A stretch of 64,000 nucleotides of DNA, from positions 512,001 to 576,000 of the forward strand of contig CAWGMA010000001.1 of NCBI GenBank assembly GCA_963823555.1, read 5' to 3'. Position numbers and translations under genes: made by a program. Origin of the DNA: Candidatus Eiseniibacteriota bacterium. Lineage in GTDB: Bacteria > Eisenbacteria > RBG-16-71-46 > CAVPCR01. The notes under the pieces are model-generated. The model was given only the letters and a program-made list of their open reading frames with translations, did no database searches and was not told the DNA's origin. Below are positions 2,313 to 20,616 of this stretch, piece by piece (position 1 is the stretch's first letter; every line of letters begins with the position of its first letter).

Positions 2313-5300
2313 TGGCTCGTCGAATCCGCACGACGGCGGCCTGCATCGCCGGGTTCATGGCCCTCGCCTCGGTGGCCAGGGCCGGACCGCATTCCACTGA
2401 GACGATCCTCGATTTCCCGGCCGATCGTCTCGTGCTCTCCGTCGAATCCGGTGAGACGCGCATCGACTACCCGGGCGGGTTTCGCGCCGCACCCGAGGGT
2501 GCTCCCGATCTGCCGCGCATCGCCGTGTTGCTGGAGGGCCCGCCGGCGTCGACCGTGATCGCGGTGGAAGTCGATGTGCTCGAGGTCGAGGAGCTGGGAG
2601 TGCACCGGATCGCGAGGGCCGCGGCCGATCGGTCGGCTGACGGTCAGATCGCGGTCGCCCCGCCCGCGGCCCCATCTTCGCTCGCCGACGGCTTCTTCCC
2701 CGCGGCGATCGCCACCTTCGAAGGTTCCGGAGCCATGCGCGGGCGCCATCTCTTCCAGTTCGTCGTGAACCCGGTGCGCTGGAACCCGGAGAGCGGCCAG
2801 CTCGTGCTCCTGACCCGTATCCGCCTGCGCTACGAGCTCGGCCCATCATCCCAGGAAATCCTGCCGCGCCACCGCGTCATGCCCGAGACCGAGGTCAAGT
2901 TCGGGCGCGGGCTGGCGCACGTGCTCGGCGCCGGCGGGCGTGCTGCCGGAGCGGATGCGGGCGGTGCGGACGCGGTCCTCCCCGACGGCGCGACGCCGGC
3001 GGGTCCCGGCCCCTACCAGCCCACCTTCCGCCCGACGACGGACGGCAGCGCGGTCGAGTACGTCGTCATCACCTCGGAGGCCCTGGCCGGCGAGTTCGAG
3101 CCGCTCGTCCAGTGGAAGACGGAGAAGGGCGCTCAGGCCGTGGTGCGCACGGTCGAATGGATCGATGCGACCTACCCCAATGGCGTCGATCGGGCCGAGC
3201 GGGTGCGCTTCTTCATCCGGGACGCCTACCAGAACTGGGGCACGCTCTTTGTCCTCCTGGGCGGCGACACCGATGTGATCCCGGTTCGGTATGCTGAAGC
3301 CAACATCCTGGGCGGCGAATCGATTCCCACCGATTACTACTACATGTGTCTGGAGGGCAACTGGAACGCCGACGGGGACGCCCGTTTCGGGGAGGCCTTC
3401 GAGGGGCCGGAGAACCCGGGGGACAACGTGGATCTGATGCCCGAGGTCTATGCCGGGCGCGCCCCGGTCTCGACCCCGGAGCAGGCAGCGGTCTTCGTCG
3501 CCAAGACCATCGCCTACGATCGCAATCCCGCGACAGGCAACGGCGGCTACCCGGCGTCGATCCTCTATCTCGCCGAGCGTCTCTTCACCAACATCGACGG
3601 CGCCCTGATCGCGGAGGAGGCGAATGCGCTCGTGCCGCCCTGGTTCAAGCGGGTCAAGCTCTACGAGGAGTACGCGAGCTGGCCGCAGGCGTTGCCGGAG
3701 ACCTACTCGGCGGTCATCGATTCGATCAACAACGGCTTCGGCATCGTGTATCACATCGGCCACGGCTACCGCAACACGATGTCGATCGGCGACGGCGTGC
3801 TCATCAACGCCGATGCCGATGCCCTGGTGAACGGCGCTCGTCAGTCCGTTGTCTTCGCCATCAACTGCAGCGCAGCCTCGATCGACTTCAATGCGATCGG
3901 AGAGCGGTTCGTCAAGAATCCGGATGGCGGCTCCATCGCCTACATCGGCACCTCCCGGCAGGCCTTCGTCAGCGCATCGCGCGAGTACCAGGAGGAGTGG
4001 TTCTCGGCGATCTTCGCCAGCCCCGACTCGTTGCGTAGCCTGGGAGAGGTCTGCGCCGTGTCGCGTCTCCCCTTCGTGCCGTTCTCCGGTTACGAGAGCA
4101 GCTTTCGCTGGACGCTGTTCGCTGTCACGTTGCTCGGGGATCCGGAGGTCGACCTCCACACCCATGGCATCGCGCCGATCGCGGTGAATCATGCGCCGAC
4201 GATCGCGCTGGGTGCGGGGTCCTTCGCGCTGGCGGTGACGAGCGCGGGCGCGCCGCTTGCTGGCGCCCAGGTGACCCTGTGGAAAGAGGGCCAGGCCTAC
4301 GCCCGCGGTGTCACCGATGCCGGAGGGGTGGCCGCTCTCGCCTTCGCGCCGGAGACAACGGGTCCCGCCACGCTCACCGTATCGCGGCCGGGATATGCCG
4401 TGTATCAGGCCACCGTGACGGTGACCGCGGCGAGCGGGCCGTATCTCCACGTGCAATCGGTCCTCGTCGATGACGACATCATCCCGCCCTCGAGCGGCGA
4501 CGGCGACGGGCGCGCCGACGCCGGCGAGACGGTGGAGATCGCGGTGACGCTCAAGAACGCGGGTGGCGCGGGCGCCACCGGGGTCAACGCCGTGCTGCGC
4601 GTGGCCGATGCCGGTGGGTTCGTGACCCTCGTCGATTCGACGGTGAGCTACATCGCGATCGGGGCCGGCGGCTCATCGAGCGGAGCAGGGCGCTTCGTCA
4701 TCGCCATCGCGCCCGATGCGCCTTATGCCCTCCAGCCCGTCTTCACGCTCCGCGCCGCCACCGATCAGGGCATCTTCTCGGATGTCTTCGTCCTGCCGGT
4801 ACGGCGCTCCTTTCTCGAGCACGTGACCCACGTGATCGATGACGCCGTTCCGCGCGGGAACGGCAACGGCGTGATCGAAGCCGGAGAGGAGATCTGGTAC
4901 TCGATCTCGCTCAGGAATTCGGGGCAGGATGCAGCCGAGGCGGTGGCGGCCACGCTGGCGGCGGTCAAGGCCCGTACGCTCGACCCCGAACCCCTGGTCA
5001 CGGTGAGCGACGGGAACTCGAGCTTCGGGAGCGTCGCGGTGGGGGCCACGCTGACCGGGGACCGCTTCGCATTCGCCCTCGATCCGGGGCTCGATCCGGA
5101 CTCGCTTCGTCTCGCGGTGTCCTATGACGACGCCGACGGACCGGTTCGCACCGAGTACCTCGATGTCGTACCGCCAGGCGCGGTGGATAGCCTCGTCGTC
5201 TTCGGGGCGCCCAGCTCGCTCCTCATCAAGTGGAAGCGGCCAGCGGATCCCGATGTGCTCGGCTACGAGATCTTCCGCGCTCCGAGTCCGGGCGGGCCCT

Positions 5301-7129
5301 TCGTCCGGGTGAACGATTATCTGGCGGAGGGGGCCGCGGTGTTCGAGGATCCGGATCTCATGCCGCTCACCCGTTACACCTACAAGATCGCGCCGCGAGA
5401 CTCGTCGTTCAATGCGGGACCGCTCTCGACAGCGGTCTCCGGATCCACGAACCCGCCACTCGCGGTGGGATGGCCGATCGAGCTCGGCCAGCAGGCCCAG
5501 TCCTCTCTCCAGCTCGCCGATGTGGCCGGAGGCAGCGATAACGAGGTGTTCACCGCGGCCGACTACCAGTTCGGCTGGCACGCCGACGGCAGCGAGATCG
5601 TCGACGGCGACGGGGATCCACGCACGAGCGGGGTCCTCGCCCCGGATGGTTATTCGTCCTCGAAATCGTTCAGCGCTACCTGTGCGCTCGGTGACATGAA
5701 CGGAGACGGCAACGTGGAGATCGCTAATGTGGGCTGGATGCTGCCCGAGGCCTACCTCTGGAACGCGGACGGCGAGCTGCTATCGGGGTGGCCTGAGCCG
5801 GTGTTCGGTGATTTCAACTGGCCGTCGCCCCTGATGGCCGATATCGACGGCGATGACGATCTCGAACTCGTCGTGTGGGCGGCACAGGGTGGACGTCTCC
5901 TCGCCTGGCACCATGACGGCAGCGAGGTTGCCGACGGCGACAACAATCCCTCGACGCACGGCATCCTCTACCGCGTTACCGGAGCGTCATACTGCTATTC
6001 ATCTCCTGCGGCGGCCAACCTCGATGCGGATCCGGAGGCGGAGATCGTCTTCTGCCTCAACTTTGCGACCGACAATGCCGGCCCGATCTACGCCGTGAAC
6101 GGCGACGGCACCCTCGTCCCCGGCTGGCCGGTCGCGACCGGTGACCCCGCCAACCCTTCCGCCATCACGGCCTCACCAGCGATCGGCGATCTCGATCGCG
6201 ATGGCGTGAACGAGGTCGTGGTCGCCTCGGAGCGGGGTGGTGGGCGCGTGCATGTGTTCAGGGCCAACGGTACGGTGTTCCCGGGATGGCCGAAGAGCAT
6301 TCCCGCCGTGACGGCGCAGGTGCGGACCGGCTCCCCGGTCCTCGCGGATGTCGACGACGACACCTACCTCGATGTCGTCTTCCCCAGCTCGGACGGTCAG
6401 CTCTGGGTCTGGAACCGAAATGGCGCGACGCTTCCGGGATTCCCGGTCCGGTTCTACTCCGGGGCCGGCGAGGCGACGCAATCGTCACCGACGGTGGGGG
6501 ATCTCGATGCCGACGGAAGGATGGAGATTCTCATCGGGGACGAGACCGGAAGGCTCCACGCCTTCAACCACGACGGCGCTCCGGTCGCCGGCTTCCCGAT
6601 CCAGCTCGGCGGGGAGGTTCGAGGCTCGTCGATCATCTGGGACATCGACAATGACGGCCTGGTCGAGGTCGGCCTGGTGTGCTGGGACGCCAACGTCTAC
6701 ATCTGGGATCTACCCTATGCCTGGAACCCGACGCGCATCCCCTGGCCCTTCTTCCGCCATGATGTCGCCAATACGGGCTATGTCGGGAGCGAGATCCTCC
6801 CTGTCGCCATCGCCGAACCCGGGGCGGCCCCGGATAATGGCCCCCGTCTCGCGGTGATTCACCCGGCCCGGCCGAACCCATTCAATCCGCGCACCACGCT
6901 CTCCTTTGATGTGCCCGGATCAGGACAGATCCCGGTGAGCCTGTCGATCTATGATGTGGACGGCCGTCTCGTGGCGCGCATCCTGGACGGCCAGCTCCCG
7001 CCCGGCCGTCACGCGGTGGATTGGGACGGGCGCGGAGAAGGCGGCCGGGGTCTTGCGGCCGGGGTCTATTTCTACCGGGTCACGATCGGGGATTTCACCG
7101 CATCCCGCAAACTGACCCTCGTCAAGTAA
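2309..7129 (+). CDS. C25 (gingipain-like) cysteine peptidase with propeptide, Ig/FN3 domains, FG-GAP repeats and FlgD-Ig C-terminal domain
   Basis: Signal peptide; C25 motifs VLLGGD, TDYYY, GRAPV, YHIGHG (His), AINCS (Cys), LLGDP; FG-GAP repeats; PNPFNP...GVYFYR...KLTLVK tail. Start overlaps the upstream stop. Confidence 0.88.
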   Translation: MMARRIRTTAACIAGFMALASVARAGPHSTETILDFPADRLVLSVESGETRIDYPGGFRAAPEGAPDLPRIAVLLEGPPASTVIAVEVDVLEVEELGVHRIARAAADRSADGQIAVAPPAAPSSLADGFFPAAIATFEGSGAMRGRHLFQFVVNPVRWNPESGQLVLLTRIRLRYELGPSSQEILPRHRVMPETEVKFGRGLAHVLGAGGRAAGADAGGADAVLPDGATPAGPGPYQPTFRPTTDGSAVEYVVITSEALAGEFEPLVQWKTEKGAQAVVRTVEWIDATYPNGVDRAERVRFFIRDAYQNWGTLFVLLGGDTDVIPVRYAEANILGGESIPTDYYYMCLEGNWNADGDARFGEAFEGPENPGDNVDLMPEVYAGRAPVSTPEQAAVFVAKTIAYDRNPATGNGGYPASILYLAERLFTNIDGALIAEEANALVPPWFKRVKLYEEYASWPQALPETYSAVIDSINNGFGIVYHIGHGYRNTMSIGDGVLINADADALVNGARQSVVFAINCSAASIDFNAIGERFVKNPDGGSIAYIGTSRQAFVSASREYQEEWFSAIFASPDSLRSLGEVCAVSRLPFVPFSGYESSFRWTLFAVTLLGDPEVDLHTHGIAPIAVNHAPTIALGAGSFALAVTSAGAPLAGAQVTLWKEGQAYARGVTDAGGVAALAFAPETTGPATLTVSRPGYAVYQATVTVTAASGPYLHVQSVLVDDDIIPPSSGDGDGRADAGETVEIAVTLKNAGGAGATGVNAVLRVADAGGFVTLVDSTVSYIAIGAGGSSSGAGRFVIAIAPDAPYALQPVFTLRAATDQGIFSDVFVLPVRRSFLEHVTHVIDDAVPRGNGNGVIEAGEEIWYSISLRNSGQDAAEAVAATLAAVKARTLDPEPLVTVSDGNSSFGSVAVGATLTGDRFAFALDPGLDPDSLRLAVSYDDADGPVRTEYLDVVPPGAVDSLVVFGAPSSLLIKWKRPADPDVLGYEIFRAPSPGGPFVRVNDYLAEGAAVFEDPDLMPLTRYTYKIAPRDSSFNAGPLSTAVSGSTNPPLAVGWPIELGQQAQSSLQLADVAGGSDNEVFTAADYQFGWHADGSEIVDGDGDPRTSGVLAPDGYSSSKSFSATCALGDMNGDGNVEIANVGWMLPEAYLWNADGELLSGWPEPVFGDFNWPSPLMADIDGDDDLELVVWAAQGGRLLAWHHDGSEVADGDNNPSTHGILYRVTGASYCYSSPAAANLDADPEAEIVFCLNFATDNAGPIYAVNGDGTLVPGWPVATGDPANPSAITASPAIGDLDRDGVNEVVVASERGGGRVHVFRANGTVFPGWPKSIPAVTAQVRTGSPVLADVDDDTYLDVVFPSSDGQLWVWNRNGATLPGFPVRFYSGAGEATQSSPTVGDLDADGRMEILIGDETGRLHAFNHDGAPVAGFPIQLGGEVRGSSIIWDIDNDGLVEVGLVCWDANVYIWDLPYAWNPTRIPWPFFRHDVANTGYVGSEILPVAIAEPGAAPDNGPRLAVIHPARPNPFNPRTTLSFDVPGSGQIPVSLSIYDVDGRLVARILDGQLPPGRHAVDWDGRGEGGRGLAAGVYFYRVTIGDFTASRKLTLVK

Positions 7130-7133
7130 TCAG

Positions 7134-8261
7134 GTGGCAGGATTCACGGCGCATGGCCCCAGGCAACGACGACGAGCCGGGGGCTTGGTTGCCAATCTCT
7201 TTCTCCTTCTTGCGAGCATCCTCTTCACGCTCGTGGCTCTGGAGATGGCGCTGCGCCTCGTGGAGCGCCGCGAGACCGGACGCCCGCCGGCGGTGGCAGC
7301 GGACGCCGATGCGGATTCGGCCGCCCGGGATGTCACTCCCGAGTATGTGCCGTCCGACCTTCTGGGCTGGACGCTCCGCCCCGCGAGCGTGCAGCGTTTC
7401 CGGCGGCGGGGATTCGACACCACCGTCCGCTCGAATGATCTCGGCTTCCGCGGTCCCGTGGTGGAGCCCAAGGCTGCGGACGTGAAACGCTGGGCCGTGC
7501 TCGGCGATTCGTACGGCTTCGGCTGGGGGGTCGAGGAGAGCGAGACCTATGCCGCGGAGTTCGAACGCCTGCTGAATGCCGGTCCGGATCACGGGGTGCG
7601 CTACGAGGTCGTGAACGCGGCCTTGCCTGGATTCGGCACCTATCAGCGTCTGGCGGCGCTCGAATGTCTCCGGCCCTATGGGCTCGACGGCATCATCGTC
7701 GAATTCAGCGCCTCCAATGATGTGGTCGATGACTGGCGGGCTGCTCCCTACGTTCCCGATCGTCTCGGTGAGTACCAGGCGCGGGGGACGCAGTTCACGG
7801 CATTCGAGCGCTTCTTGAACGCACACAGCCGCTTGTTCACGCTGCTCTGGAATCGTGCCATGCCGCTCCGGTTGTGGCTCGAGGCCCGTTCCGGGAAGAA
7901 CCTCGAGCGAAGCGAGCGGTTGTGGGAGCAGATCCTCGCCCGTGCCGATGCGCTCGATCTCGACGTCCTGGTGGTGGTCAACGCCTCGCGCTACCAGGTG
8001 CTCGGGGATGGAGGCGGTGTGATGAGCTGGCTGGCACACACCGGCTTCGGCCTCAGGCCCAACACGATGATCCGCCGGGTCATCGAGCGCCATCGACTGC
8101 CATGGGTCGATGGAGAGCAGGTGTTTCGGGCGGCCCCGGCCGGCGATCTCTTCCTCGGCGGGGATGTGCACTGGACCAGGAAGGGCCACCGGCTCGTGGC
8201 CGAGGCCCTCGCAGACCGGATCGAGGAGGTCTCGCCGCCGCCGCCGGCCGGCGCGAACTAG
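7134..8261 (+). CDS. Membrane-anchored SGNH/GDSL hydrolase
   Basis: N-terminal TM helix; block I VLGDSYGFG, block II NAALPG, block III SND, block V DVHW. Confidence 0.85.
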   Translation: MAGFTAHGPRQRRRAGGLVANLFLLLASILFTLVALEMALRLVERRETGRPPAVAADADADSAARDVTPEYVPSDLLGWTLRPASVQRFRRRGFDTTVRSNDLGFRGPVVEPKAADVKRWAVLGDSYGFGWGVEESETYAAEFERLLNAGPDHGVRYEVVNAALPGFGTYQRLAALECLRPYGLDGIIVEFSASNDVVDDWRAAPYVPDRLGEYQARGTQFTAFERFLNAHSRLFTLLWNRAMPLRLWLEARSGKNLERSERLWEQILARADALDLDVLVVVNASRYQVLGDGGGVMSWLAHTGFGLRPNTMIRRVIERHRLPWVDGEQVFRAAPAGDLFLGGDVHWTRKGHRLVAEALADRIEEVSPPPPAGAN

Positions 8262-8353
8262 CCAAGGCGACCTGGACACCGCCCACCAGGCGGCGCCTGG
8301 CCCTATGGATTAATTTATTGTCTGGCAAGATTTTGTAGGCTTGGAGCAGAGTG

Positions 8354-8383
8354 TTGCCGGGGCCATGGCGGGTCTGCTAGCAT
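8354..8383 (+). promoter_or_regulatory. Putative sigma70 promoter of the tRNA pair
   Basis: TTGCCG-N18-TAGCAT with a TGn extension, about 75 nt upstream of tRNA-Gln. Confidence 0.35.
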
Positions 8384-8457
8384 CGTTCTTCGCCCGAGGG
8401 GTGCCGGGACGGCGCCCCGGCGCGTGGCTGGTCACGACGCTCGCTTTCATGACGCGT

Positions 8458-10433: not shown

Positions 10434-10880
10434 CTAGCCCTCGGTTCCGGTTCCGGCCCGGCGGAGGGCGCGCAGGAGTTCGTCCGGCTCGTCGGTGCCG
10501 ATGCGGAAGGTCCGGCCGTTCTTGAACTCGAGTTCGACCGCGTCGCGTCCGGAGACGTTGTAGAGCCAGCCCGATCCAGCCCAGCGGACGCCGTAACCCG
10601 TGAACCAGGAGTTCTTGACCGCCCGGGCCCTCGCGATCTGATCCAGCGGAATCGTCCGGCGCGGCAGACCGAGGCCGAAATGCACCTCGATGGTGCCGTC
10701 ACCGATACGGACCGTGAGGGTGGTGAAGAGGATCACGCAGGCGGCGACCGCGAGGAGGACGCCGACGACGCCAGCCGGCCAGCCTTCCCGCGCTCCGACC
10801 CAGATGAGAGCGGCGAAGGCCACGGCGAATGTGATGACCATCACCTTACCGACCTGCGTGTGGTGATAGTTCTCACTCAT
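10434..10880 (-). CDS. Small membrane protein (2 TM helices plus a possible bacterial PH-like domain)
   Basis: MSENYHHTQ, two TM segments, then GYGVR...WLYNVSG...IGTDEPDEL. The ORF extension to 11369 is antisense to the next gene. Confidence 0.7.
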   Translation of the reverse strand: MSENYHHTQVGKVMVITFAVAFAALIWVGAREGWPAGVVGVLLAVAACVILFTTLTVRIGDGTIEVHFGLGLPRRTIPLDQIARARAVKNSWFTGYGVRWAGSGWLYNVSGRDAVELEFKNGRTFRIGTDEPDELLRALRRAGTGTEG

Positions 10881-10962
10881 GACAGTTCCTCCGCCGGCAA
10901 GCATATCATTGCTCAGCCCCGCGAGCACCGAGACTGGGGCTTCGATGCTATATTCGGCCGCC

Positions 10963-12888
10963 ATGAACCGACGCCGTATCGAGCAGCTCCTGGTTCCGGC
11001 CCGCGCCCGAGTCGAGCGTGTCCTCGGCGGGGGGGCATCCCGCCTTGTCGTTGTCGACGTCGCGGCGCAGCGTCTCCATCTGGTCGAGGGCGATGGTGTC
11101 GTCCTCGATCTGCCCGTCTCCACCGCGGCCGCCGGGGTCGGCGGGGCCGAGGGCTCGCACAAGACGCCGCCCGGTGTGCACACGATCGCCGCGCGCATCG
11201 GCGAAGGCCAGCCGCTCGGTGCCATCTTCGAGAGCCGTGAACCGACCGGGACCCTGTGGCGAGGGGAACCGACCGACGAGGACTTGATCCTGACCCGGGT
11301 CCTCACCCTGGATGGCAGGGAAGACGGAGTGAACCGCGGCCCGGGTCGGGACTCGCTCGCACGATACATCTACATCCACGGCACCAGCCACGAGCACGAG
11401 CTCGGTCGACCGGCTTCCCATGGCTGCATTCGCCTCGCCAACCACGAGATAGTGAGCCTCTTTGACCGCGTCCGGGAGGGCGATCCGGTGGTGGTCCTCG
11501 ACGGTCCGTCGACGCTTCCCGATCCACGAGAGAGTCGCTTCCATTACGCCGGGGTTGCCGGAAGCGGAATGAGCGCGCTCGCCCAGTTCCAGGGCATGCT
11601 CGGCGGGCGGGCCACAGGGAGCGATCGTGCTCTCGACCGCGGCGGAGTGCCGGCCATCCGCGCGGCCCTCGAGCGGGCTGAGGTGGCCATCGTGCCCCAG
11701 GACGGGAGCGGCATCCTCCCGGATACCGACGCCCTCATCGTCTCGACCGCGGTCGAGGACACGGTGCCCGACGTGCGGGCGGCGCGGGCGGCCGGCGTGC
11801 CCATCTTCCATCGCTCGGAGCTCCTGGCCGCGCTCATCGCATCGCGACGCACGATCGCCGTTGCCGGCACCAGCGGCAAGTCGACGGTGGTGGCGATGAT
11901 CTTCGAGCTCCTGCGCGGCGCCGGACGCGACCCATCCCTGGTGACGGGGGGCGATCTCCTGGTCCTGGGCGATGAGGGTTACCTGGGAAATGCCTGGGTC
12001 GGAGGTTCCGATCTCCTCGTGGTCGAGGCCGATGAGAGCGATGGCTCTCTGGTCCGCTACGAGCCGGCGACGGGAGTCGTCCTCAACCTCCAGAAGGACC
12101 ACAAGGAAGAACGCGAGGTGCGCGCGATGTTCGAGACCTTCCGTGCCCGCTGCCGCGAGTCGTTCGTCGTCGGCGAGGGCGAGAACCTGGCGCCGATGCG
12201 CGCCGGAGCGCTCGTCTTCGGCTGCGGCGAGGCTGCGACCCTGCGGGGCGAGGAGATCGAGCTGGGTGCTGAGGGGAGCGCGTTCACGGTCGAGGGCGTA
12301 CGCTACCGGCTCCCGGTCCCGGGCCGGCACAATGTCGAGAATGCGCTCGCCGCGCTTGCCGCGTGTCGCGCCGCGGGCCTCGAGATCTCGGATCTCGCCG
12401 GCCCGCTCGCGCGTTTCAGGGGCGTGGGACGCCGTTTCCAGGTGCTCGGCGTGGCCGGCGAGGTCACCGTCGTCGATGACTTCGCGCACAATCCCGCCAA
12501 GATCCGGGCGGCGCTCGCGACCGCGCGTCTGCGGGAGCCCGGGCGCATCCTCGCCGTCTATCAGCCCCACGGTTTCGGTCCGACGCGGTTCCTCGAGCAG
12601 GATCTCATTCAGGCCTTCGCCGAGTCGCTCGAGCCGCGTGATCACCTCTGGCTCCTCGACATCTTCTATGCGGGCGGCACGGCGACCAGGGACATGAGCT
12701 CCGCCGACCTCGCCGCCGGCATCGCCGCCCGCGGCATCGCCGCCATGGTGGCCCCTGATCGCCAGGCGCTCGTCGCGAGCATCGCTGAGGCCGCCGCACC
12801 GGGAGATCTCGTGCTCGTCATGGGGGCGCGGGATCCCTCGCTCACCGAGCTCTGCCAGGACATCCTCCTTGCCCTGGCCGCGGCCTAG
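10963..12888 (+). CDS. Fusion of a YkuD-family L,D-transpeptidase/carboxypeptidase domain (ElsL-like) with a MurC/Mpl-like Mur ligase
   Basis: N-terminal IYIHGT...SHGCIRL (YkuD His/Cys) with no signal peptide. C-terminal GVAGSGMSALA, P-loop GTSGKST, EADESDG, HNVENA, GRRF, DDFAHNP, QPHG. Confidence 0.88.
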   Translation: MNRRRIEQLLVPARARVERVLGGGASRLVVVDVAAQRLHLVEGDGVVLDLPVSTAAAGVGGAEGSHKTPPGVHTIAARIGEGQPLGAIFESREPTGTLWRGEPTDEDLILTRVLTLDGREDGVNRGPGRDSLARYIYIHGTSHEHELGRPASHGCIRLANHEIVSLFDRVREGDPVVVLDGPSTLPDPRESRFHYAGVAGSGMSALAQFQGMLGGRATGSDRALDRGGVPAIRAALERAEVAIVPQDGSGILPDTDALIVSTAVEDTVPDVRAARAAGVPIFHRSELLAALIASRRTIAVAGTSGKSTVVAMIFELLRGAGRDPSLVTGGDLLVLGDEGYLGNAWVGGSDLLVVEADESDGSLVRYEPATGVVLNLQKDHKEEREVRAMFETFRARCRESFVVGEGENLAPMRAGALVFGCGEAATLRGEEIELGAEGSAFTVEGVRYRLPVPGRHNVENALAALAACRAAGLEISDLAGPLARFRGVGRRFQVLGVAGEVTVVDDFAHNPAKIRAALATARLREPGRILAVYQPHGFGPTRFLEQDLIQAFAESLEPRDHLWLLDIFYAGGTATRDMSSADLAAGIAARGIAAMVAPDRQALVASIAEAAAPGDLVLVMGARDPSLTELCQDILLALAAA

Positions 12889-13899
12889 CTAGACGTAGGG
12901 GCAGGCGACGAAATGCTCAGCGCCGCGATCGACGAGCGGTGGCACGGTGTCGGCGCAGTCGGGGCGCGCGATCGGGCAGCGCGTGCGGAAGGCGCATCCG
13001 GAAGGCTTCGCCAGGGGATTCGGGACCTCGCCCGTCAGGCGAATGCGGCGGCCGCGCCCGCCGGAGCGCGGCACCGGTTGCGGTACGGCGGACAGCAGTG
13101 CCACCGTGTAAGGGTGAAGCGGGCGGCGGATGACTTCGTCGGCTTCACCGAGCTCGATCACGTTCCCCAGGTACATGACGGCGATGCGGTCGGCGATGTG
13201 ATGCACGACGTTCAGATCGTGGGCCACGAAGAGGTAGGAGAGGCCGAACTCCTCGCGCAGCTCGGCGAGAAGATTCAGGACCTGGGCCTGGATCGAGACG
13301 TCGAGCGCGGAGACGGGCTCGTCGGCGGCGATCAGCCGGGGATGGGTGGCGAGGGCGCGAGCGATACCGATCCGCTGGCGCTGCCCGCCCGAGAACTCGT
13401 GCGGGTAGCGGTTGATGTGATCGGGTTGCAGACCGCAGCGGGCAAGGAGCTCGCGTACCCGCTCCTCGCGCTCCGCCCGGCCTAGCTTCGTGTGCAGGCG
13501 CAGCGGCCCGTCCACGATCTCGCGCACGGTGAGGCGCGGATTGAGCGAGGAGAAGGGGTCCTGGAAGATCATCGAGATCTCGGCCCGGTAGGGCCGCATG
13601 GCCTTGGCCCCCAGCGTGAGCAGGTCCACCACACCGCTCTCCGCCAGGTAGCTGATCGTGCCGGAGAGGTGGATCCCGGGCACCATGGCCCGGAGCAGGT
13701 TGACGATCGCGCGGGCCACCGTCGTCTTGCCGCAACCCGATTCGCCCACGAGGCCGAGCGTCTCGCCCGGAGCCAGGGCGAAGGAGACGCCGTCGACCGC
13801 ATTCACGGCCCCCACCTTGCGGCGCAGGAGCCCGCCATAGATGGGGAATGAAACGCGGAGATCCTCGACCGCGAGCAGGGGTGTCACCGGCGTGATCAT
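12889..13899 (-). CDS. oppF: Peptide ABC transporter ATP-binding subunit (OppF/DppF-like)
   Basis: [29 protein letters not shown]-terminal Cys cluster; ATGA overlap with the upstream ATPase. Confidence 0.9.
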
Positions 13900-14897
13900 C
13901 GTCCGCTGTCCTCGACCAGATGACATCGCGCCCAGTGCCCGGGTCCGACTTCGAGGAGCTCTGGCTCCTCGGTCTCGCAGCGGGCGAAGACCTCGTCGCA
14001 GCGTGTCCAGAACTTGCAGCCTCGCGGCAGCTCGAGGATCCCTGGCACGATGCCCGGGATCGGATTGAGCCTTCCGCCCTTCGTATCAAGACGTGGCAGG
14101 GAGCGCATCAGGCCGCGCGTGTAGGGATGGGCTGGATGCTCGAAGATGGCCTCCACCGGGCCCATCTCCTGCACCTTGCCGCCGTACATCACGATCACGC
14201 GCTCGCAGGTCTCGGCGACCACGGCGAGGTCGTGCGTGATGAGGAGGAGCGCTGATTCGGGTCGCGCAGCCTTGAGCTCGAGCATCAGGTCGAGGATCTG
14301 GGCCTGGATGGTGACGTCGAGGGCGGTGGTCGGCTCGTCGGCGATGAGCAGCAGCGGGTTGGAGGCGAGCGCCATCGCGATCATGACGCGCTGCCGCATG
14401 CCGCCCGAGAACTGGTGCGGGTAGTCGCGCATGCGCGAGCGCGCCGCCGGGATGCCGACCCGCTCGAGGGCCGTGACCGCGCGCTCGAAGGCTTCAGCCT
14501 CGCTCATCCCCTCGTGCTCGCGCAGCGTCTCCATGACCTGCATCCCGATCGTGAACACGGGATTGAGCGAGGTCATCGGCTCCTGGAAGATCATCGAGAT
14601 CTGCTTGCCGCGGACCTCGCGCATGGCGGTGGTATCGAAGGTGAGGAGATCGCGATCCTTGAACCAGATCTCCCCGCTCGCGATGCGTCCGGGCGGGCTG
14701 GGGATGAGCCGCAGCATCGATAGCGCGGTCACCGACTTCCCCGAGCCCGATTCGCCGACGATCCCGAGAACCTCGCCGGTCATGATGTCGAAGCTCACGC
14801 CGTCGACGGCCGGAGCCTCGCGCCCGTCGAGGTCGAAGACCGTGCGCAGATTCCTCACCGAGATGAGTGGAGTGCCCATGACGCCGCTCGTCGTCAT
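13896..14897 (-). CDS. oppD: Peptide ABC transporter ATP-binding subunit (OppD/DppD-like)
   Basis: [28 protein letters not shown]. Confidence 0.9.
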
Positions 14898-16010
14898 CTA
14901 GCGCAACCTCGAGAAGGCGCGCGGGTCGAACGCCTCGCGCACGGCCTCACCGATGAAGACCACCATGATCAGGGTCCCGAACAGGGCGCCGAGGGGGAAG
15001 ATGACCAGGTGCCAGGCGGTGATGTGGGCGAGCCCCTGCCCGACCATCTCGCCCCAGCTGGGTGTCGGGGCCGGGAGCCCGAAGCCCAGGAAGTCGAGGG
15101 CGACGAGCGCCGAGATGTAGCCGACGATGGCGAAGGGAGCGAAGGAGATCACAGGCGTCAGCGCGTTGGGAAGAATGTGGCGGAACATGACGGCCCGCTG
15201 GTTCTCGCCTTGAACGATCGCAGCTGCCACGTAGTCCTTGGCCTTCTCCCGGTAGAACTCGCCGCGGATGTAGAAGGACATGCCGACCCAGCCGAAGAGC
15301 GAGAGCAGCACCGCCAGGAGTGCGATATTCGGTCGCACCAGTGAGCTCACGATGATCATCGTGTAGAGGAACGGGAGGGCGGCCCAGATCTCGACCAGGC
15401 GCTGGCCGAGCACGTCGACCCGGCCCCCGAAGAATCCGAGGATCGAGCCGACCGTGATGCCGAACGAGTAGGCGAGGACAACGACGGCCAGCGCGAAGGT
15501 GATCGAGATGCGGAAGCCGTAGGAGAGGCGGGCAAAGACATCACGCCCGCGGTCATCCGTCCCGAGCCAGTGCCGGTGGCTCGGGGCGTGGGGTGGCTCA
15601 CCCTGGAGATCGGGTTCGAGGAGGAGCGATTCGTTGGGATGGAAGGGGTAGGGCGGCATGATCACCCAGTCCCCTTGCCCTTCGCGGCGGTACTTCGCGG
15701 CGAGGTCGCGGTAGCGGGCCTCGCCCAGTCCCGCCTGGCCGAAGGTCGACGCATCGTAGTACTTGAAGGTGGGGAAGTAGAGCTTGCCCGCGTGACGAAC
15801 CATGATGGCGCGGTTGTTGATCAGGAACGGATTCAAGAAGCTCAGGAGGTAGAGACTGGCGATGATGAGGAACGAGTAATAGCCGCGCTTCAAGTGTCGG
15901 AAACGCCGGAGCCGCCGGCGAAACACCGACTCGGAGCGTGGAGCCGCGGCGGGCGCGGTCGTGCTCTCAGCTGAAGCGGATGCGTGGGTCGATGAGGACA
16001 TAGAAGACAT
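14898..16010 (-). CDS. yejE: Peptide ABC transporter permease, YejE-like (start uncertain)
   Basis: RRFRHLKRGYYS, YFP, HWLGTDDRGRDVFARLSYGFRIS, HILPNA, GEAVREAFDPR. Confidence 0.82.
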   Translation of the reverse strand: MSSMSSSTHASASAESTTAPAAAPRSESVFRRRLRRFRHLKRGYYSFLIIASLYLLSFLNPFLINNRAIMVRHAGKLYFPTFKYYDASTFGQAGLGEARYRDLAAKYRREGQGDWVIMPPYPFHPNESLLLEPDLQGEPPHAPSHRHWLGTDDRGRDVFARLSYGFRISITFALAVVVLAYSFGITVGSILGFFGGRVDVLGQRLVEIWAALPFLYTMIIVSSLVRPNIALLAVLLSLFGWVGMSFYIRGEFYREKAKDYVAAAIVQGENQRAVMFRHILPNALTPVISFAPFAIVGYISALVALDFLGFGLPAPTPSWGEMVGQGLAHITAWHLVIFPLGALFGTLIMVVFIGEAVREAFDPRAFSRLR

Positions 16011-17007
16011 CCGAGATGATGTTCCCGGTCAGGGTCAGGAAGGTGTTGATGACCAGGATGCCCATCACCACCGCATAGTCGCGCTCGACCACCGCATCGA
16101 AACCCAGGTAGCCGATGCCGTTGATGTTGAACACTTTCTCGATCAGGTACGAGCCGGCCATGACCAGCGAGATGGCGTGGCCGAGGCCGGTGGCGATCGG
16201 GATCAAGGAGTTGCGCATGGCGTGCAGGAAGACGACCCGCTGCTCGCTCAGCCCCTTGGCGAAGGCGGTGCGCACGTAGTCCTGGCCCAGGTTCTCGAGC
16301 AGCGAGTTCTTCATGAGCACGGTGAGGGTGGCGAAGCTCCCCACCATGTAGCAAAGAACCGGCAGGAAGGTGTGGTGCAGCTGATCGGTGATCTTGCCGA
16401 TGAGGTTCATCTCGCTCCAGCCCTCGGAGCGGAAGCCTCCGAGCGGAAACACGTCGAAGAAGCTGCCGCCGCCGAAGAGCACGAGGAGCACGGCCCCGAG
16501 TGCCCATCCTGGAATCGAGTAGCCGATGAAGACGATCGCACTCGTCACGAAATCGAAGCGCGAACCGTGGCGCAGCGCCTTCAGGACTCCGAGTGGGACG
16601 CATACCAGGTAGGACAGCGTGAAGCCGATGAGCCCGAAGTAGATCGAGACCGGAAAGCGGGAGCGGATCACGTCCCATACCGGTTCGTTGTACTTGTACG
16701 ACTTCCCCAGATTGAGATGGAGCAGGTCGTTGAGCCAGAGCATGTAGCGGACCGGGATCGGCTTGTCGAAGCGGAACTGCTTCTTGAGCTCGGCGATGGC
16801 TTCAGCCGGCATCTCGACCGATGCCATTCCAGGGCCGGCCCCGCCGCCCGCGGCGCCCCCTTCGCCGGCAGCTGCCATCTTCATCTTCATGATCGCCTGC
16901 TCGATCGGCCCGCCGGGCACGAATTGCATGATCATGAAAACGAGAATGGTGATCCCAAGGAAGGTCGGGATCATGAGCAGGAGGCGGCGGAGGAAGTAGG
17001 TTCCCAT
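15967..17007 (-). CDS. yejB: Peptide ABC transporter permease, YejB-like
   Basis: YFLRRLLLMIPT...PGGPIEQ, FDKP, FGGGSFFDVFPLGG, YVRTAFAKGL, DPRI. Confidence 0.85.
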   Translation of the reverse strand: MGTYFLRRLLLMIPTFLGITILVFMIMQFVPGGPIEQAIMKMKMAAAGEGGAAGGGAGPGMASVEMPAEAIAELKKQFRFDKPIPVRYMLWLNDLLHLNLGKSYKYNEPVWDVIRSRFPVSIYFGLIGFTLSYLVCVPLGVLKALRHGSRFDFVTSAIVFIGYSIPGWALGAVLLVLFGGGSFFDVFPLGGFRSEGWSEMNLIGKITDQLHHTFLPVLCYMVGSFATLTVLMKNSLLENLGQDYVRTAFAKGLSEQRVVFLHAMRNSLIPIATGLGHAISLVMAGSYLIEKVFNINGIGYLGFDAVVERDYAVVMGILVINTFLTLTGNIISDVFYVLIDPRIRFS

Positions 17008-17022
17008 CTTCGATCGCCGGTT

Positions 17023-19023
17023 CTAGAGCGAGGCCGTCGCCTTCTCGGTCGCCTGCTTGTAGGCCTCCCAGAAGTGGATCTCAGTCGGTCCCTGCGGCAT
17101 CGTCACCTGGGGGTTCGTCTTTCCGCCCTCGACGACCTTCTCCTTCTCCGGGTCGACCCACCATGAGTAGAGGATCTGATCGAAGTCCTCGACGCGACTC
17201 AGGTACCAGCGGGGCTGCCCGAGCTTGTTCCAGTAAGCGAACCTCTGGCTCGGTAGATACCATTCCATGACATAGTGGTGCTGGTTGTAGGCGATGCCGT
17301 CGATCTCCCGGATGATCGCGATCCGCTCCTTGATATCGAAGGACCTGTCATAGGCCTCGCAGAGCTCGTCCACCCTGGCGTCCTTGAATCCGGTGATGTT
17401 GTTGTTGTCCTTGAGATCGGCGAGCCGCGAGTGGAGGCTCGTTTCCGGATTGGGGAAGACGAGACCGCCCCAGGCGGTGGAAGTGAGCGCGAACTTGCGA
17501 TCCATCAGGTTCTTCCAGCGCGTCGAGCGGTTGAGGAGCTGGAGGTCGATCTGGATACCGGCCCGCCGGCAATCCTCCTGGAAGATGGTGAGGCTGCGCT
17601 CGGAGAGCTTGGATTCGTACTGGATCTCCAATTGGAGCTTTTGACCATCCTTGACCAGGATGCCGTCGGACCCGCGTTCGGTCCAGCCCGCCTCGGCCAG
17701 GAGCTCCACCGCTTGTTCCGGATCATAGGGGATGGGCTCATTGTCGGGGTTCTGGTAGATCCCCCCCTGGTACATCGAGCACTGGACCTTGTACTCGTTG
17801 TAATACAGCTTCTCGATCATGAGCTCGCGGTTCATGAGGTAGCAGAGAGCCTTCCGCACCCGGAGGTCGTCAAGCGGCGGCCGGCGCGTGTTGATGGCGA
17901 GCCCGCTCACCCCGATCGGTGCATCGGTGAAGACCTTTCGCTTCTGGATCAGGCCGCGCTGGACGCCGTCGATCTTGTCCACCTCCTCGGCCCACCACTG
18001 CGCCTTGGGGATCTGGAGGATGTCGATCTCCCCCTTCTTGAACTTCTCGAAGGCGAGGTTCTCGTCCTTGACGACGACGAACTTGATCTTGTCGATGTTG
18101 CCGCGGCCCTGGGCCAGGCAATCGTCCTGGCCCCAGTAGTCCGGGCGCCGCGTCAGCGTGATCGAGACACCCTTCTCGATGTCCTCAGGGAGCACGATGT
18201 AGGGCCCGCTCACCGCCGTGTACTTGAACTGATACTCGTCGAGGTAGGTCTTGCCGTCGATCTTCCCGATCTCGTGCGCGGGGAAGATGGAGGTGCCGCC
18301 GAAATACTGGAAGTTCCGCCAGTTCCGTTCCTTGACCCTGACCTCCACGATGTACTTGGAGATGGCCCGCGGCTTCTCCATCTTGCCGAAGGTGAAGGCC
18401 GCCGAAGGATCCTGAACGCCCGGATCGGTCTTGAGACGGATGGTGGCGATGACATCCTCCGCGGTCACCTCGTGACCGTCCGACCAGCGGGCCGCAGGGT
18501 TGATGCGGAAACGATACGTCACTTGATCGTCGGAGATCTGCCAATGGGTGGCGAGCCCAGGGACGAACTCGAGGGTGACCGGGTGGATCGAGATCAGGGA
18601 CTCGTAACAGAGGCCACTGATCAGGTAGTTGACATAGTCGTTCCATCCCTGACCGCACTGGCGGAGAGTGGCGGGCCAGTCGTAGATGACCTGCCGGACC
18701 GTGCCGCCCTTGATGGCATTGGGGTCGCCGATGAGCGGATATTCGCTTGCCGTCTGCCAGCCCTCGCCGGTGAAGCCGGGACCGCCGAGCTCCGCGGGGA
18801 CGCTGGCGTCGCCCGCCTGGGGGTCGAAGCTGGGAGTGCAGGTCTCGAGAACGAGGTCCTCGGTGCTGAACGCGGCCCTCTCCTTCCCGGCTCCCGCACT
18901 TTCCGTGGCTTCTCCGGACTTGCCCCTGCCGCATCCCGTAAGCGCCACAGCGACGGCGAGGCTCGCGAGGACCAGTCCGTGACCGAGCGGCGAATAGATC
19001 TGCTTGGAAAGCCGAAGCGTCAT
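17023..19023 (-). CDS. Peptide ABC transporter substrate-binding lipoprotein (family 5, YejA-like)
   Basis: Lipobox ALTGC; DPNAIKGG, ARWSDGHEVTAEDV, SGPY, DLRVRKAL. The ORF extension to 20184 is an antisense shadow. Confidence 0.88.
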   Translation of the reverse strand: MTLRLSKQIYSPLGHGLVLASLAVAVALTGCGRGKSGEATESAGAGKERAAFSTEDLVLETCTPSFDPQAGDASVPAELGGPGFTGEGWQTASEYPLIGDPNAIKGGTVRQVIYDWPATLRQCGQGWNDYVNYLISGLCYESLISIHPVTLEFVPGLATHWQISDDQVTYRFRINPAARWSDGHEVTAEDVIATIRLKTDPGVQDPSAAFTFGKMEKPRAISKYIVEVRVKERNWRNFQYFGGTSIFPAHEIGKIDGKTYLDEYQFKYTAVSGPYIVLPEDIEKGVSITLTRRPDYWGQDDCLAQGRGNIDKIKFVVVKDENLAFEKFKKGEIDILQIPKAQWWAEEVDKIDGVQRGLIQKRKVFTDAPIGVSGLAINTRRPPLDDLRVRKALCYLMNRELMIEKLYYNEYKVQCSMYQGGIYQNPDNEPIPYDPEQAVELLAEAGWTERGSDGILVKDGQKLQLEIQYESKLSERSLTIFQEDCRRAGIQIDLQLLNRSTRWKNLMDRKFALTSTAWGGLVFPNPETSLHSRLADLKDNNNITGFKDARVDELCEAYDRSFDIKERIAIIREIDGIAYNQHHYVMEWYLPSQRFAYWNKLGQPRWYLSRVEDFDQILYSWWVDPEKEKVVEGGKTNPQVTMPQGPTEIHFWEAYKQATEKATASL

Positions 19024-19212
19024 CGGAGCACTCCTTGATTTCTGCTCGCTGGGGAATCCGAGTTCAGAACGGTGGGAGACTGTGCTGGGGCGATGATGGT
19101 AACACAGCCCACGCGGGAGAGGCGCGGGAATCGCCCAGGCGATATACTCGATCCAGGTTCCGGAACCGTCCCGGTCCCGCCCCCATCCCCCCCTCGCAAG
19201 GAGAGGCACGCT

Positions 19213-20616
19213 ATGACCAAGTGCCGGTTGGCTGTGTTCTTCGCGCTCGCCACGGCCGGGCTCGCCGTGACACCGGCGGTTGCGCAGCACCCCCCGGAAA
19301 ACGTCGTTCTCCTGAGCCACCTCGATCGCGGCGAGGAGTACTCGGGCAACTGGGGCTACACCGCGCCCGACGGGACCGAGCTGGCCATCTCGGGCACGAT
19401 TGCCGGGACCACGTTCATCGATGCCACCGTGCCCACGGCCGCCGTCGAGGTGGCCTTCATCCCCGGGCCGGGCTCGATCTGGAGGGAGATGGCGGTCTTC
19501 GGCCACTACTGCTACATCGTCACCGAGGCGGAGGGGGCCGCGCTGCAGGTCGTCGACCTCAGCGATCCGTTGAGCCCCAGCCTGGCCGCGACCCTCAATC
19601 CACCGGCGCTGCCCTTCAGCCGCGCCCATGAGATCAAGATCGACCAGACCACGGGACTCTGCTATGTCGCGGGCACCCGCAATGGCTCGACCTACACTGG
19701 ACTCATCATCCTCGATCTGAACGTCAACCCGCTCCAGCCGGTCCATCTTGGCAGCTGGCCGATTTCGGGGGCGAGTACGGACAACTACGTGCACGACCTG
19801 TCCATCCTCGACGGCAAGGCCTACTGCGCCAACATCTATGCCGGCGAGGTGGTCGTGCTCGATGTCACGCAGCCCGGTGCTCCGCCCGTGCTGCAGAGCT
19901 GGACGTATCCCAGCGCCTTCACCCACAACACCTGGCCGAGCGCGGATGGGTCCTTTCTCGTCACCACCGACGAGAACGCAGGCGGCCATCTCCGGATGTG
20001 GGATGTGAGCGACCTGGATCAGATCCAGCAGACGGACGAGTGGGTCTCGCCGACGGGGGGCCTCGTTCACAACGCCTACCTGCGCGGGAGTCTGTGCTTC
20101 ATGTCGCACTACCAGGATGGGCTGCGCGTGGTGGACGTGTCCGATCCCTACGCCCTCCGGCCCGTGGGCTGGTATGACACGCACCCGGCCGATGGAGGGA
20201 CATCACGCGGCGCCTGGGGCTGCTTCTGCTTCGCCGCCGACTCGACGATCGTCTACATCAGCGACCGGGACACCGGGACCTATATCCTCCGCTACGTGGC
20301 TCCGCCGGTCGCCGTTCTCGACCCCGAGGCGATCGCCCCCAGCGCTCCGGGCAGTATCAGCTCTCCCAACCCCTTCCGGGCCATGACGCGAATCCGCTTC
20401 ACCCTGGCCGAGCCCGGGCCGGTGAGCCTCCGTATCTACGACTCGTCGGGGCGACTCGTCCGTACCCTGGCCGATCGCTCCATGGCGACGGGCCTGCAGG
20501 CCGTGACCTGGGACGGCCGCGATGGGGCCAGTCGCCGGGTGGGAAGCGGCGTGTACTACTACCGTCTCGATGCCCCTGGACTCGGAACCAGCGGGCGGTT
20601 GGTGGTTACTCCATAG
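19213..20616 (+). CDS. Choice-of-anchor B / LVIVD-repeat secreted protein with FlgD-Ig C-terminal domain
   Basis: RBS AAGGAG, signal peptide, WGY, WREM, YVHD, THNTW, HN, GAWG motifs; SPNPF...WDG...SGVYYYR tail. Confidence 0.82.
   Translation: MTKCRLAVFFALATAGLAVTPAVAQHPPENVVLLSHLDRGEEYSGNWGYTAPDGTELAISGTIAGTTFIDATVPTAAVEVAFIPGPGSIWREMAVFGHYCYIVTEAEGAALQVVDLSDPLSPSLAATLNPPALPFSRAHEIKIDQTTGLCYVAGTRNGSTYTGLIILDLNVNPLQPVHLGSWPISGASTDNYVHDLSILDGKAYCANIYAGEVVVLDVTQPGAPPVLQSWTYPSAFTHNTWPSADGSFLVTTDENAGGHLRMWDVSDLDQIQQTDEWVSPTGGLVHNAYLRGSLCFMSHYQDGLRVVDVSDPYALRPVGWYDTHPADGGTSRGAWGCFCFAADSTIVYISDRDTGTYILRYVAPPVAVLDPEAIAPSAPGSISSPNPFRAMTRIRFTLAEPGPVSLRIYDSSGRLVRTLADRSMATGLQAVTWDGRDGASRRVGSGVYYYRLDAPGLGTSGRLVVTP

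Follow-up and report, generated by a model that had tools for sequence, protein, structure and literature searches.

We analyzed a window of 64,000 nucleotides, the whole stretch of DNA considered here, from a Candidatus Eiseniibacteriota genome (assembly GCA_963823555.1, contig CAWGMA010000001.1, positions 512,001 to 576,000), with a focus on a gene that joins a YkuD domain to a Mur ligase. An initial annotation of this DNA had described one uninterrupted open reading frame of about 640 amino acids (aa) without a signal peptide, and had quoted YkuD motifs from its N-terminal part; both descriptions hold. The ligase belongs to a group that we call MurC2, a working name unrelated to the "MurC2" of Frankia (PMC7231273). 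The gene and its parts are as follows.

10963..12888, + strand: fusion gene, 641 aa, with a single terminal stop and alternative in-frame ATG starts at 10945 and 10879
11041..11496, + strand: ElsL-like YkuD domain, aa 27-178 (Pfam PF03734, 83 bits, cut-off 23)
11377..11379, + strand: His139 of HGT, predicted catalytic histidine (from motif position)
11425..11427, + strand: Cys155 of SHGCIR, predicted catalytic cysteine (motif conserved in homologs)
11497..11538, + strand: short linker, aa 179-192, without stop or frameshift
11539..12831, + strand: complete three-domain Mur ligase of the MurC2 branch (from Pfam, family scores, alignment, and tree)
11866..11886, + strand: P-loop GTSGKST, where MurC/Mpl have G[TSA]HGKT (from alignment)
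12475..12495, + strand: DDFAHNP, with the Phe that Mpl also has in place of MurC Tyr346 (from alignment)
12562..12588, + strand: QPHGFGPTR, with Gly and Pro at the positions of the L-Ala-binding MurC Arg377 and Arg380 (from alignment)

The motifs TPPG, HGT, and SHGCIR stand at residues 68, 139, and 152, respectively, and we take His139 to be catalytic from established knowledge of the YkuD family. Pfam delimits Mur_ligase at 193-295, Mur_ligase_M at 300-468, and Mur_ligase_C at 490-623, and the traits of the Mur ligase superfamily are intact in the N, middle (P-loop, Mg-binding Glu), and C domains. The absence of a signal peptide was judged by a hydropathy proxy: within the first 45 aa, 15-residue Kyte-Doolittle means peaked at 1.48, the highest 19-residue mean of the whole protein was 1.65, and 0 of 120 listed homologs had a hydrophobic N terminus (15-residue mean above 2.0 in the first 45 aa). 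Pfam found no peptidoglycan-binding domain in the fusion.

These homologs are the best 120 clusters of 5172 hits, one of the 120 being the fusion itself. Those with names are chiefly Candidatus Eisenbacteria, and many homologs carry the name MurC in public sources. All four Pfam domains were present in 120 of 120 clusters, drawn from several sources, the pattern HGT...S[HQ]GC.R was matched by 119, and the spacing from the Cys to the ligase was 42-46 aa in 90% of the homologs measured (n=117). The fusion is thus conserved among relatives, with 119 other fused clusters listed, and the constant architecture and spacing across sources establish that it is not an artefact of assembly. An inactive YkuD domain, which the initial annotation had raised as an objection, appears improbable as far as the catalytic residues go, as these are conserved. 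Contigs from four public runs showed no indel against the gene, and no listed piece spans 11500-11540; among the matches listed for public reads, there were 20 DNA runs, none with half of the words, and no RNA run. A promoter scan returned 0 sigma-70-like sites, and terminator-like sites numbered 2 versus 0.6 ± 0.9 in shuffles.

ElsL of Acinetobacter baumannii is, according to the accessible text of PMC8649774, a cytoplasmic enzyme that requires Cys138 and turns the tetrapeptide M4 into M3 and does not act on M5; its loss is toxic through UDP-N-acetylmuramic acid (UDP-MurNAc)-tetrapeptide made by Mpl. The ElsL model NF040925, through which alone our comparison with ElsL was made, was the best NCBIfam match of the YkuD half (123 bits). 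Other YkuD models, those of L,D-transpeptidases (Ldt) among them, reached at most 27 bits, and hydropathy indicated neither an export signal nor an anchor. Used alone as a search query, the YkuD domain returned close unnamed relatives and no characterized protein. The genome of the fusion has three further YkuD matches, one of which has a signal-like N terminus and a YcbB-type transpeptidase model as its best match. The ortholog survey described in the same text (PMC8649774) took stand-alone proteins of 105-200 aa as ElsL-type and left out sequences longer than 200 aa. The 641-aa fusion falls outside this range, so fusions could not show up in that survey.

The initial annotation had called the remainder of the protein a complete MurC/Mpl-type ligase. 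Its three domains are indeed complete, but the ligase is a member of neither family. It scored 282-283 bits against the murC model TIGR01082 (cut-off 335.1) and 126-128 bits against the mpl model TIGR01081 (cut-off 388.7). The accessible text of PMC3060825 gives His376, Arg377, Arg380, Tyr346, and His348 (Haemophilus influenzae numbering) as the amino-acid-binding residues of MurC, together with Mpl-specific residues. In an alignment of 21 MurC, 3 Mpl, and 33 MurC2 sequences, the Arg377 position was Gly in 33/33 MurC2 and Arg in 16/21 MurC, the Arg380 position was Pro in 33/33 MurC2 and Arg in 21/21 MurC, and the Tyr346 position was Phe in 32/33 MurC2 and 3/3 Mpl. The fusion carries all three substitutions and keeps both histidines, 376 and 348. 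Where Mpl has GI(C/G)GTFM, EPRSNT, and SNG, the fusion has GVAGSGM, QPHGFGP, and MGAR. The same invariant motifs recur in all MurC2 sub-branches.

The phylogeny proposed with the initial annotation was built for the ligase and placed it on a separate branch, not within Mpl or MurC. In a maximum-likelihood tree of 29 rows with a MurD outgroup, support was 99/97 for MurC, 100/100 for Mpl, 82/87 for MurC2, and 94/92 for MurC plus Mpl, and the fusion ligase fell outside both the MurC and the Mpl clades; a 60-row quick tree had the same shape. A constraint making MurC2 and Mpl sisters was not rejected (AU test, p=0.123), so we do not claim that MurC2 arose independently from Mpl, even though the best tree groups Mpl with MurC. 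The scores below cut-off, the separate clade, and the altered residues together place the ligase in neither family; MurC2 is, as judged from its sequences, a third branch of the MurC/Mpl group. A feature search of the ESM Atlas returned only automatically named clusters with the same architecture as the fusion. In one representative, P0251 (754 aa), residues 455-746, which follow MurC2, form a class II tRNA-synthetase (D, K, N) domain; it is a single case and may be an artefact. MurC2 genes are broken by a frameshift or stop in two metagenome-assembled genomes (L041:5377-7425 and L096:5968-7386), through sequencing error or decay.

The fusion is not the only murC-like gene of its genome (4.62 Mb, 92.5% complete). 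As had been proposed, it lies outside the dcw cluster: the run ftsI-murE-murF-mraY-murD-ftsW-murG-murC occupies 1,132-1,143 kb of contig C1, ∼620 kb away. The MurC of this run is canonical, with 515 bits on TIGR01082 and the motif QPHRFTRTR, and the MurE has DNPR, which we take to mark use of meso-diaminopimelic acid (mDAP).

To see what accompanies MurC2 elsewhere, we scanned one genome per species. At least 600 stretches were found, 589 were confirmed, and the best 80 loci, which are not a random sample, were kept. YkuD was fused to MurC2 in 30 of the 80 and formed a separate frame in 12, one of which (L041) looks like a frameshifted fusion and another (L039) has its YkuD 5.6 kb away. LdcA, a peptidase of family S66, stood directly downstream of MurC2 in 11 loci, and no locus of the 80 had both types. 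One protein, P0240, is a MurC2-LdcA fusion. In L091 (128-8483) and L098 (104-8543), from Kiritimatiellia and Verrucomicrobia, the genes SBP5-permease-permease-ATPase-MurC2-LdcA run on the same strand, which is, as predicted from gene content, a complete cluster for import, trimming, and ligation.

We sampled 41 genomes of the class, including that of the fusion and calling MurC2 at ≥42% identity; these are kin and not independent. MurC2 was present in 22 (in one as a fragment). An ElsL-like domain, fused in 7 and adjacent in 2, was present in nine of the 22, all of them without LdcA; 12 had LdcA, and one holder, from a 70% complete genome, had neither type. Exactly one carboxypeptidase type was thus found in 21/22 holders versus 2/19 non-holders, the latter two having LdcA and none of the 19 an ElsL-like domain. 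In two families (f10 and f14), the genome without MurC2 was also without the YkuD domain. Across phyla, 34 of 39 MurC2 genomes had one or both types (20 ElsL-like, 16 LdcA, 2 both). The association of MurC2 with one or other of two unrelated L,D-carboxypeptidases points to a tripeptide ligase, and fusion is optional, many members being split from YkuD or paired with LdcA. MurC2 loci with no YkuD or LdcA neighbor include L081-L092, L101, L110 (Fibrobacter), and L040 and L100 (Elusimicrobia); the three genomes searched among such loci had neither type, so that another trimmer, or no trimming, is to be expected there.

The strongest argument for tripeptide ligation comes from gut genomes that lack murD and murE. 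Four MurC2-LdcA loci (L107, L108, L111, and L112) belong to small Alphaproteobacteria whose source is the animal gut or is not stated, and which we presume to be of the order RF32. Among 41 genomes around one of these, we defined the gut group as the first 25 (G079-G103, 0.8-2.0 Mb), delimited by list order and ligase count. Mur_ligase_M matches numbered two in 19 of these genomes, one in 3, zero in 1, and three in 2, versus 4-7 in the other 16 genomes. In 23 of the 25, LdcA came immediately after MurC2, and the 19 loci that we fetched, in addition to the four original ones, all had this arrangement with 69-83% identity to L111. The second ligase was MurF (15/15 by BLAST; 4/4 above the TIGR01143 cut-off). 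The third match in G099 (L221:2113-5025) is a MurF-like protein of 971 aa that has long extensions and scores below all cut-offs. Neither murD nor murE above cut-off was found in any of the 25 gut genomes, whereas both were found in 8/8 controls of 1.4-2.0 Mb. Single genes were well recovered in the gut genomes, since ampG was present in 24/25 and Amidase_2 in 21/25. In the five gut genomes tested, murA and ddl were above cut-offs, and murG-like genes scored 190-215 bits, below the cut-off of 250. Of four dcw contigs fetched, one ends in ftsW and the other three contain mraY, ftsW, murB, an ftsQ-sized gene, ftsA, and ftsZ contiguously.

L223:4731-11850: contracted gut dcw cluster
L224:2844-9990: contracted gut dcw cluster
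L226:4927-11985: contracted gut dcw cluster

In all three, mraY and ftsW are separated by 9-18 bases, where E. coli has murD, and ftsW and murB by 13-55 bases, where E. coli has murG-murC. From this gene content, gut cells would make UDP-MurNAc and could add D-Ala-D-Ala but would have no stepwise route to the tripeptide. No ligase but MurC2 remains that could supply a tripeptide, MurF being kept without murD and murE, and these gut Alphaproteobacteria are predicted to be stem-peptide auxotrophs. The argument can be carried over to the ligase of the fusion because the invariant motifs are shared at 38% identity.

We therefore propose, with a probability of about 0.78, that the fusion is a cytoplasmic enzyme with two activities in the salvage of peptidoglycan stem peptides, ElsL-type trimming and ligation of the tripeptide to UDP-MurNAc. 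The YkuD half, as a cysteine L,D-carboxypeptidase, would remove the terminal D-Ala from an mDAP-containing tetrapeptide. The MurC2 half would use ATP to join L-Ala-gamma-D-Glu-mDAP to UDP-MurNAc, bypassing MurC, MurD, and MurE and feeding MurF, and would thus do the job of Mpl without being Mpl. Keeping trimmer and ligase together may guard against UDP-MurNAc-tetrapeptide, which is toxic in Acinetobacter and E. coli. As to the order of steps, the free tetrapeptide may be trimmed first, or UDP-MurNAc-tetrapeptide may be proofread. The initial annotation had the tetrapeptide trimmed and the tripeptide then religated; these two activities remain the best-supported reading, with the order of steps a prediction, except that the ligase is not an Mpl homologue. 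Somewhat less securely, we think it probable that MurC2 does the job of Mpl in many little-studied phyla, recruiting whichever L,D-carboxypeptidase is available (fused YkuD, or adjacent or fused LdcA), that it is the sole entry of stem peptides in gut Alphaproteobacteria that have deleted murC, murD, and murE and build their wall from the mDAP-tripeptides of neighbors, and that the fusion may hand the peptide directly to the ligase.

Several observations count against this proposal. The YkuD half misses the ElsL cut-off of 270, which was reached in 0 of 40 genomes. The ligase half scores nearer to murC (282) than to mpl (126), it keeps the MurC-like QPH, and MurC2 has neither EPRSNT nor MSNG, the C-domain motifs of Mpl. 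Neither carboxypeptidase was seen at 27 of the 80 loci, 5 of them on incomplete stretches, nor in 5 of the 39 genomes across phyla, which include Fibrobacter and both Elusimicrobia. The rarity of mpl, which was above cut-off in 2 of 60 distinct MurC2 genomes (62 handles minus one duplicate and one non-holder) and would favor the proposal, may be due to taxonomy alone. The gut MurC2 proteins, which share that 38% identity with the fusion's ligase, belong to another sub-branch and have LdcA, not YkuD, as a partner; the way in which the gut group was delimited is a further weakness, and the murC model, which matched only MurC2, was run on just 2 of the 25 genomes. Lastly, ampG, Amidase_2, anmK, and nagZ (E. 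coli query) had no match in the 92.5% complete genome of the fusion. Without ampG, Amidase_2, and anmK, the substrate is more likely a free stem peptide or UDP-MurNAc-tetrapeptide than an anhydromuropeptide.

One alternative, which we consider unlikely, is that the ligase salvages another peptide or acceptor (dipeptide, tetra- or pentapeptide, or non-mDAP stems) and that the family is functionally mixed, the fusion branch differing from the gut branch. C-domain motifs unlike those of Mpl, the support of only 82/87 for MurC2 as a whole with its several sub-branches, the holders without a known carboxypeptidase, and the weak acceptance of tetra- and pentapeptide by Mpl reported in the accessible text of PMC3060825 would all fit. 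However, the invariant motifs are identical across sub-branches, a dipeptide would be of no use without MurE while the gut clade keeps MurF and Ddl, and the fused trimmer implies a tripeptide.

We give little credence to a second possibility, namely, that the ligase adds L-Ala as a second MurC, whether redundant or for stress, and that chance has fused it to a YkuD domain acting independently as a recycling carboxypeptidase. The family scores and the best PDB matches of the ligase, which are MurC, lean this way, as do the retained His376 of QPH and the public naming of many homologs as MurC. Yet both L-Ala-binding arginines are lost in 33/33 MurC2 sequences, a canonical murC is already present in the genome, and an L-Ala product would lead nowhere in genomes that lack murD and murE; moreover, the recurrent pairing with two unrelated carboxypeptidases would be left unexplained.

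It is improbable that the YkuD half is instead a cytoplasmic L,D-transpeptidase, a D-amino-acid exchange enzyme, or a peptide-binding module feeding the ligase. Most YkuD enzymes are transpeptidases, and the missed ElsL cut-off agrees with such a role, but the same ligase can have LdcA, a serine carboxypeptidase, in the place of YkuD, LdcA co-occurs in only 0/9 and 2/20 holders of an ElsL-like domain, and the catalytic Cys is conserved. That the gene is an assembly artefact of two neighbors, as the split adjacent forms (G002, G003, and the 12 of 80 loci) and the lack of an aligned public contig bridging the junction might suggest, has a negligible chance of being true, being already contradicted by the 119 other fused clusters, the fusions in 7/41 class genomes, and the 30/80 fused loci from several phyla, including the cultured Holophaga foetida.

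Two features flank the fusion.

10434..10880, - strand: divergent gene for a small membrane protein, no Pfam match, also upstream of the fusion in the same-genus genome G001
12889..20184, - strand: convergent Yej/Opp-type oligopeptide ATP-binding cassette (ABC) operon (SBP_bac_5, two permeases, two ATPases), candidate importer

The operon is the best match of the genome for YejA, YejB, and YejE, and YejBEF-YepA of Agrobacterium imports muropeptides according to the accessible text of PMC9790009. Stem peptides would most likely be freed by periplasmic amidases and taken up by a Yej/Opp-type ABC importer; the genome has three AmiA-like amidases, two of them with signal-like N termini, and no LdcA match. 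The link of this importer to the fusion is weak. We dropped the operon as a conserved partner, as it was absent from the wider loci of 6/6 relatives, and its neighborhood is possibly incidental since the adjacency is not conserved; Yej/Opp-like permeases occurred near MurC2 in only 2 of the 80 loci. The solute-binding protein (17023-20184, - strand, 1053 aa) has an N-terminal part of 528 aa without a Pfam match, and sequences resembling its first 300 aa are found at two places near the G001 fusion (L237:12-710 and 7545-8396), where the remainder of the operon is missing. A murQ gene lies at 1780056-1780955 of contig C1, despite no match for anmK, ampG, or nagZ. Unrelated to the fusion, two large FG-GAP-repeat proteins with FlgD-Ig C termini, the second with Peptidase_C25, are encoded at 24-7129 (+ strand).

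Both reactions are already known, from ElsL or LdcA followed by Mpl. Reattachment of the tripeptide to the wall precursor has so far been credited only to Mpl, a separate enzyme. We found no report of a YkuD-Mur ligase fusion or of the MurC2 subfamily in a literature search in which subscription journals were thinly covered. The accessible parts of PMC13046382 and PMC9790009 treat the direct reuse of stem peptides as a route of the E. coli type and assume that species lacking homologues of LdcA and Mpl degrade the peptides to amino acids. If our proposal is true, a second ligase family is hidden under the annotation "MurC," with many annotations to correct, and the reuse route extends to Eisenbacteria-like, Acidobacteriota, Nitrospirota, Fibrobacterota, Latescibacterota, Verrucomicrobiota, and Alphaproteobacteria genomes. 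The fusion would be a one-gene recycling module that is easily tested. The gut bacteria would rely on the cell-wall tripeptide of other bacteria, a dependence that may explain their uncultured state and suggests a medium supplement. The mDAP-tripeptide is also sensed by host NOD1.

The YkuD half resembles ElsL (LdtK) in its fold family, its catalytic Cys motif, and the lack of a secretion signal or peptidoglycan-binding domain. ElsL, however, stands alone and works with AmpG and a true Mpl, whereas here the domain is fused to a ligase, and its genome has no match to ampG or mpl. Like Mpl (TIGR01081; PDB 3HN7; PMC3060825), the ligase half is a three-domain enzyme encoded apart from the dcw cluster in a genome that also has a canonical MurC; it shares with Mpl the Phe at the position of MurC Tyr346, the lack of the two L-Ala-binding arginines, and probably the reaction. 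Unlike Mpl, it lacks the GICG, EPRSNT, and MSNG motifs, forms a separate branch of the tree, occurs in other phyla, and is often fused or adjacent to a carboxypeptidase. MurC (TIGR01082) is the closest family by score and PDB match, with QPH and EADESD kept; the differences are a score below cut-off, His→Ser in the P-loop, HHP→HNP, and the altered Arg377, Arg380, and Tyr346 positions. The natural chimeras MurE-MurF and MurG-MurC also fuse consecutive cytoplasmic steps of peptidoglycan metabolism, but according to the accessible text of PMC10214165 they are enzymes of de novo synthesis, and YkuD, carboxypeptidase, and mpl do not occur in the main text of that survey as far as it was accessible. 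The nearest functional counterpart would be the LdcA (S66) and Mpl pair of E. coli, which carries out the same two consecutive steps and whose LdcA is the alternative partner of MurC2; in the fusion, neither half comes from the same family as its counterpart, and both are in one chain.

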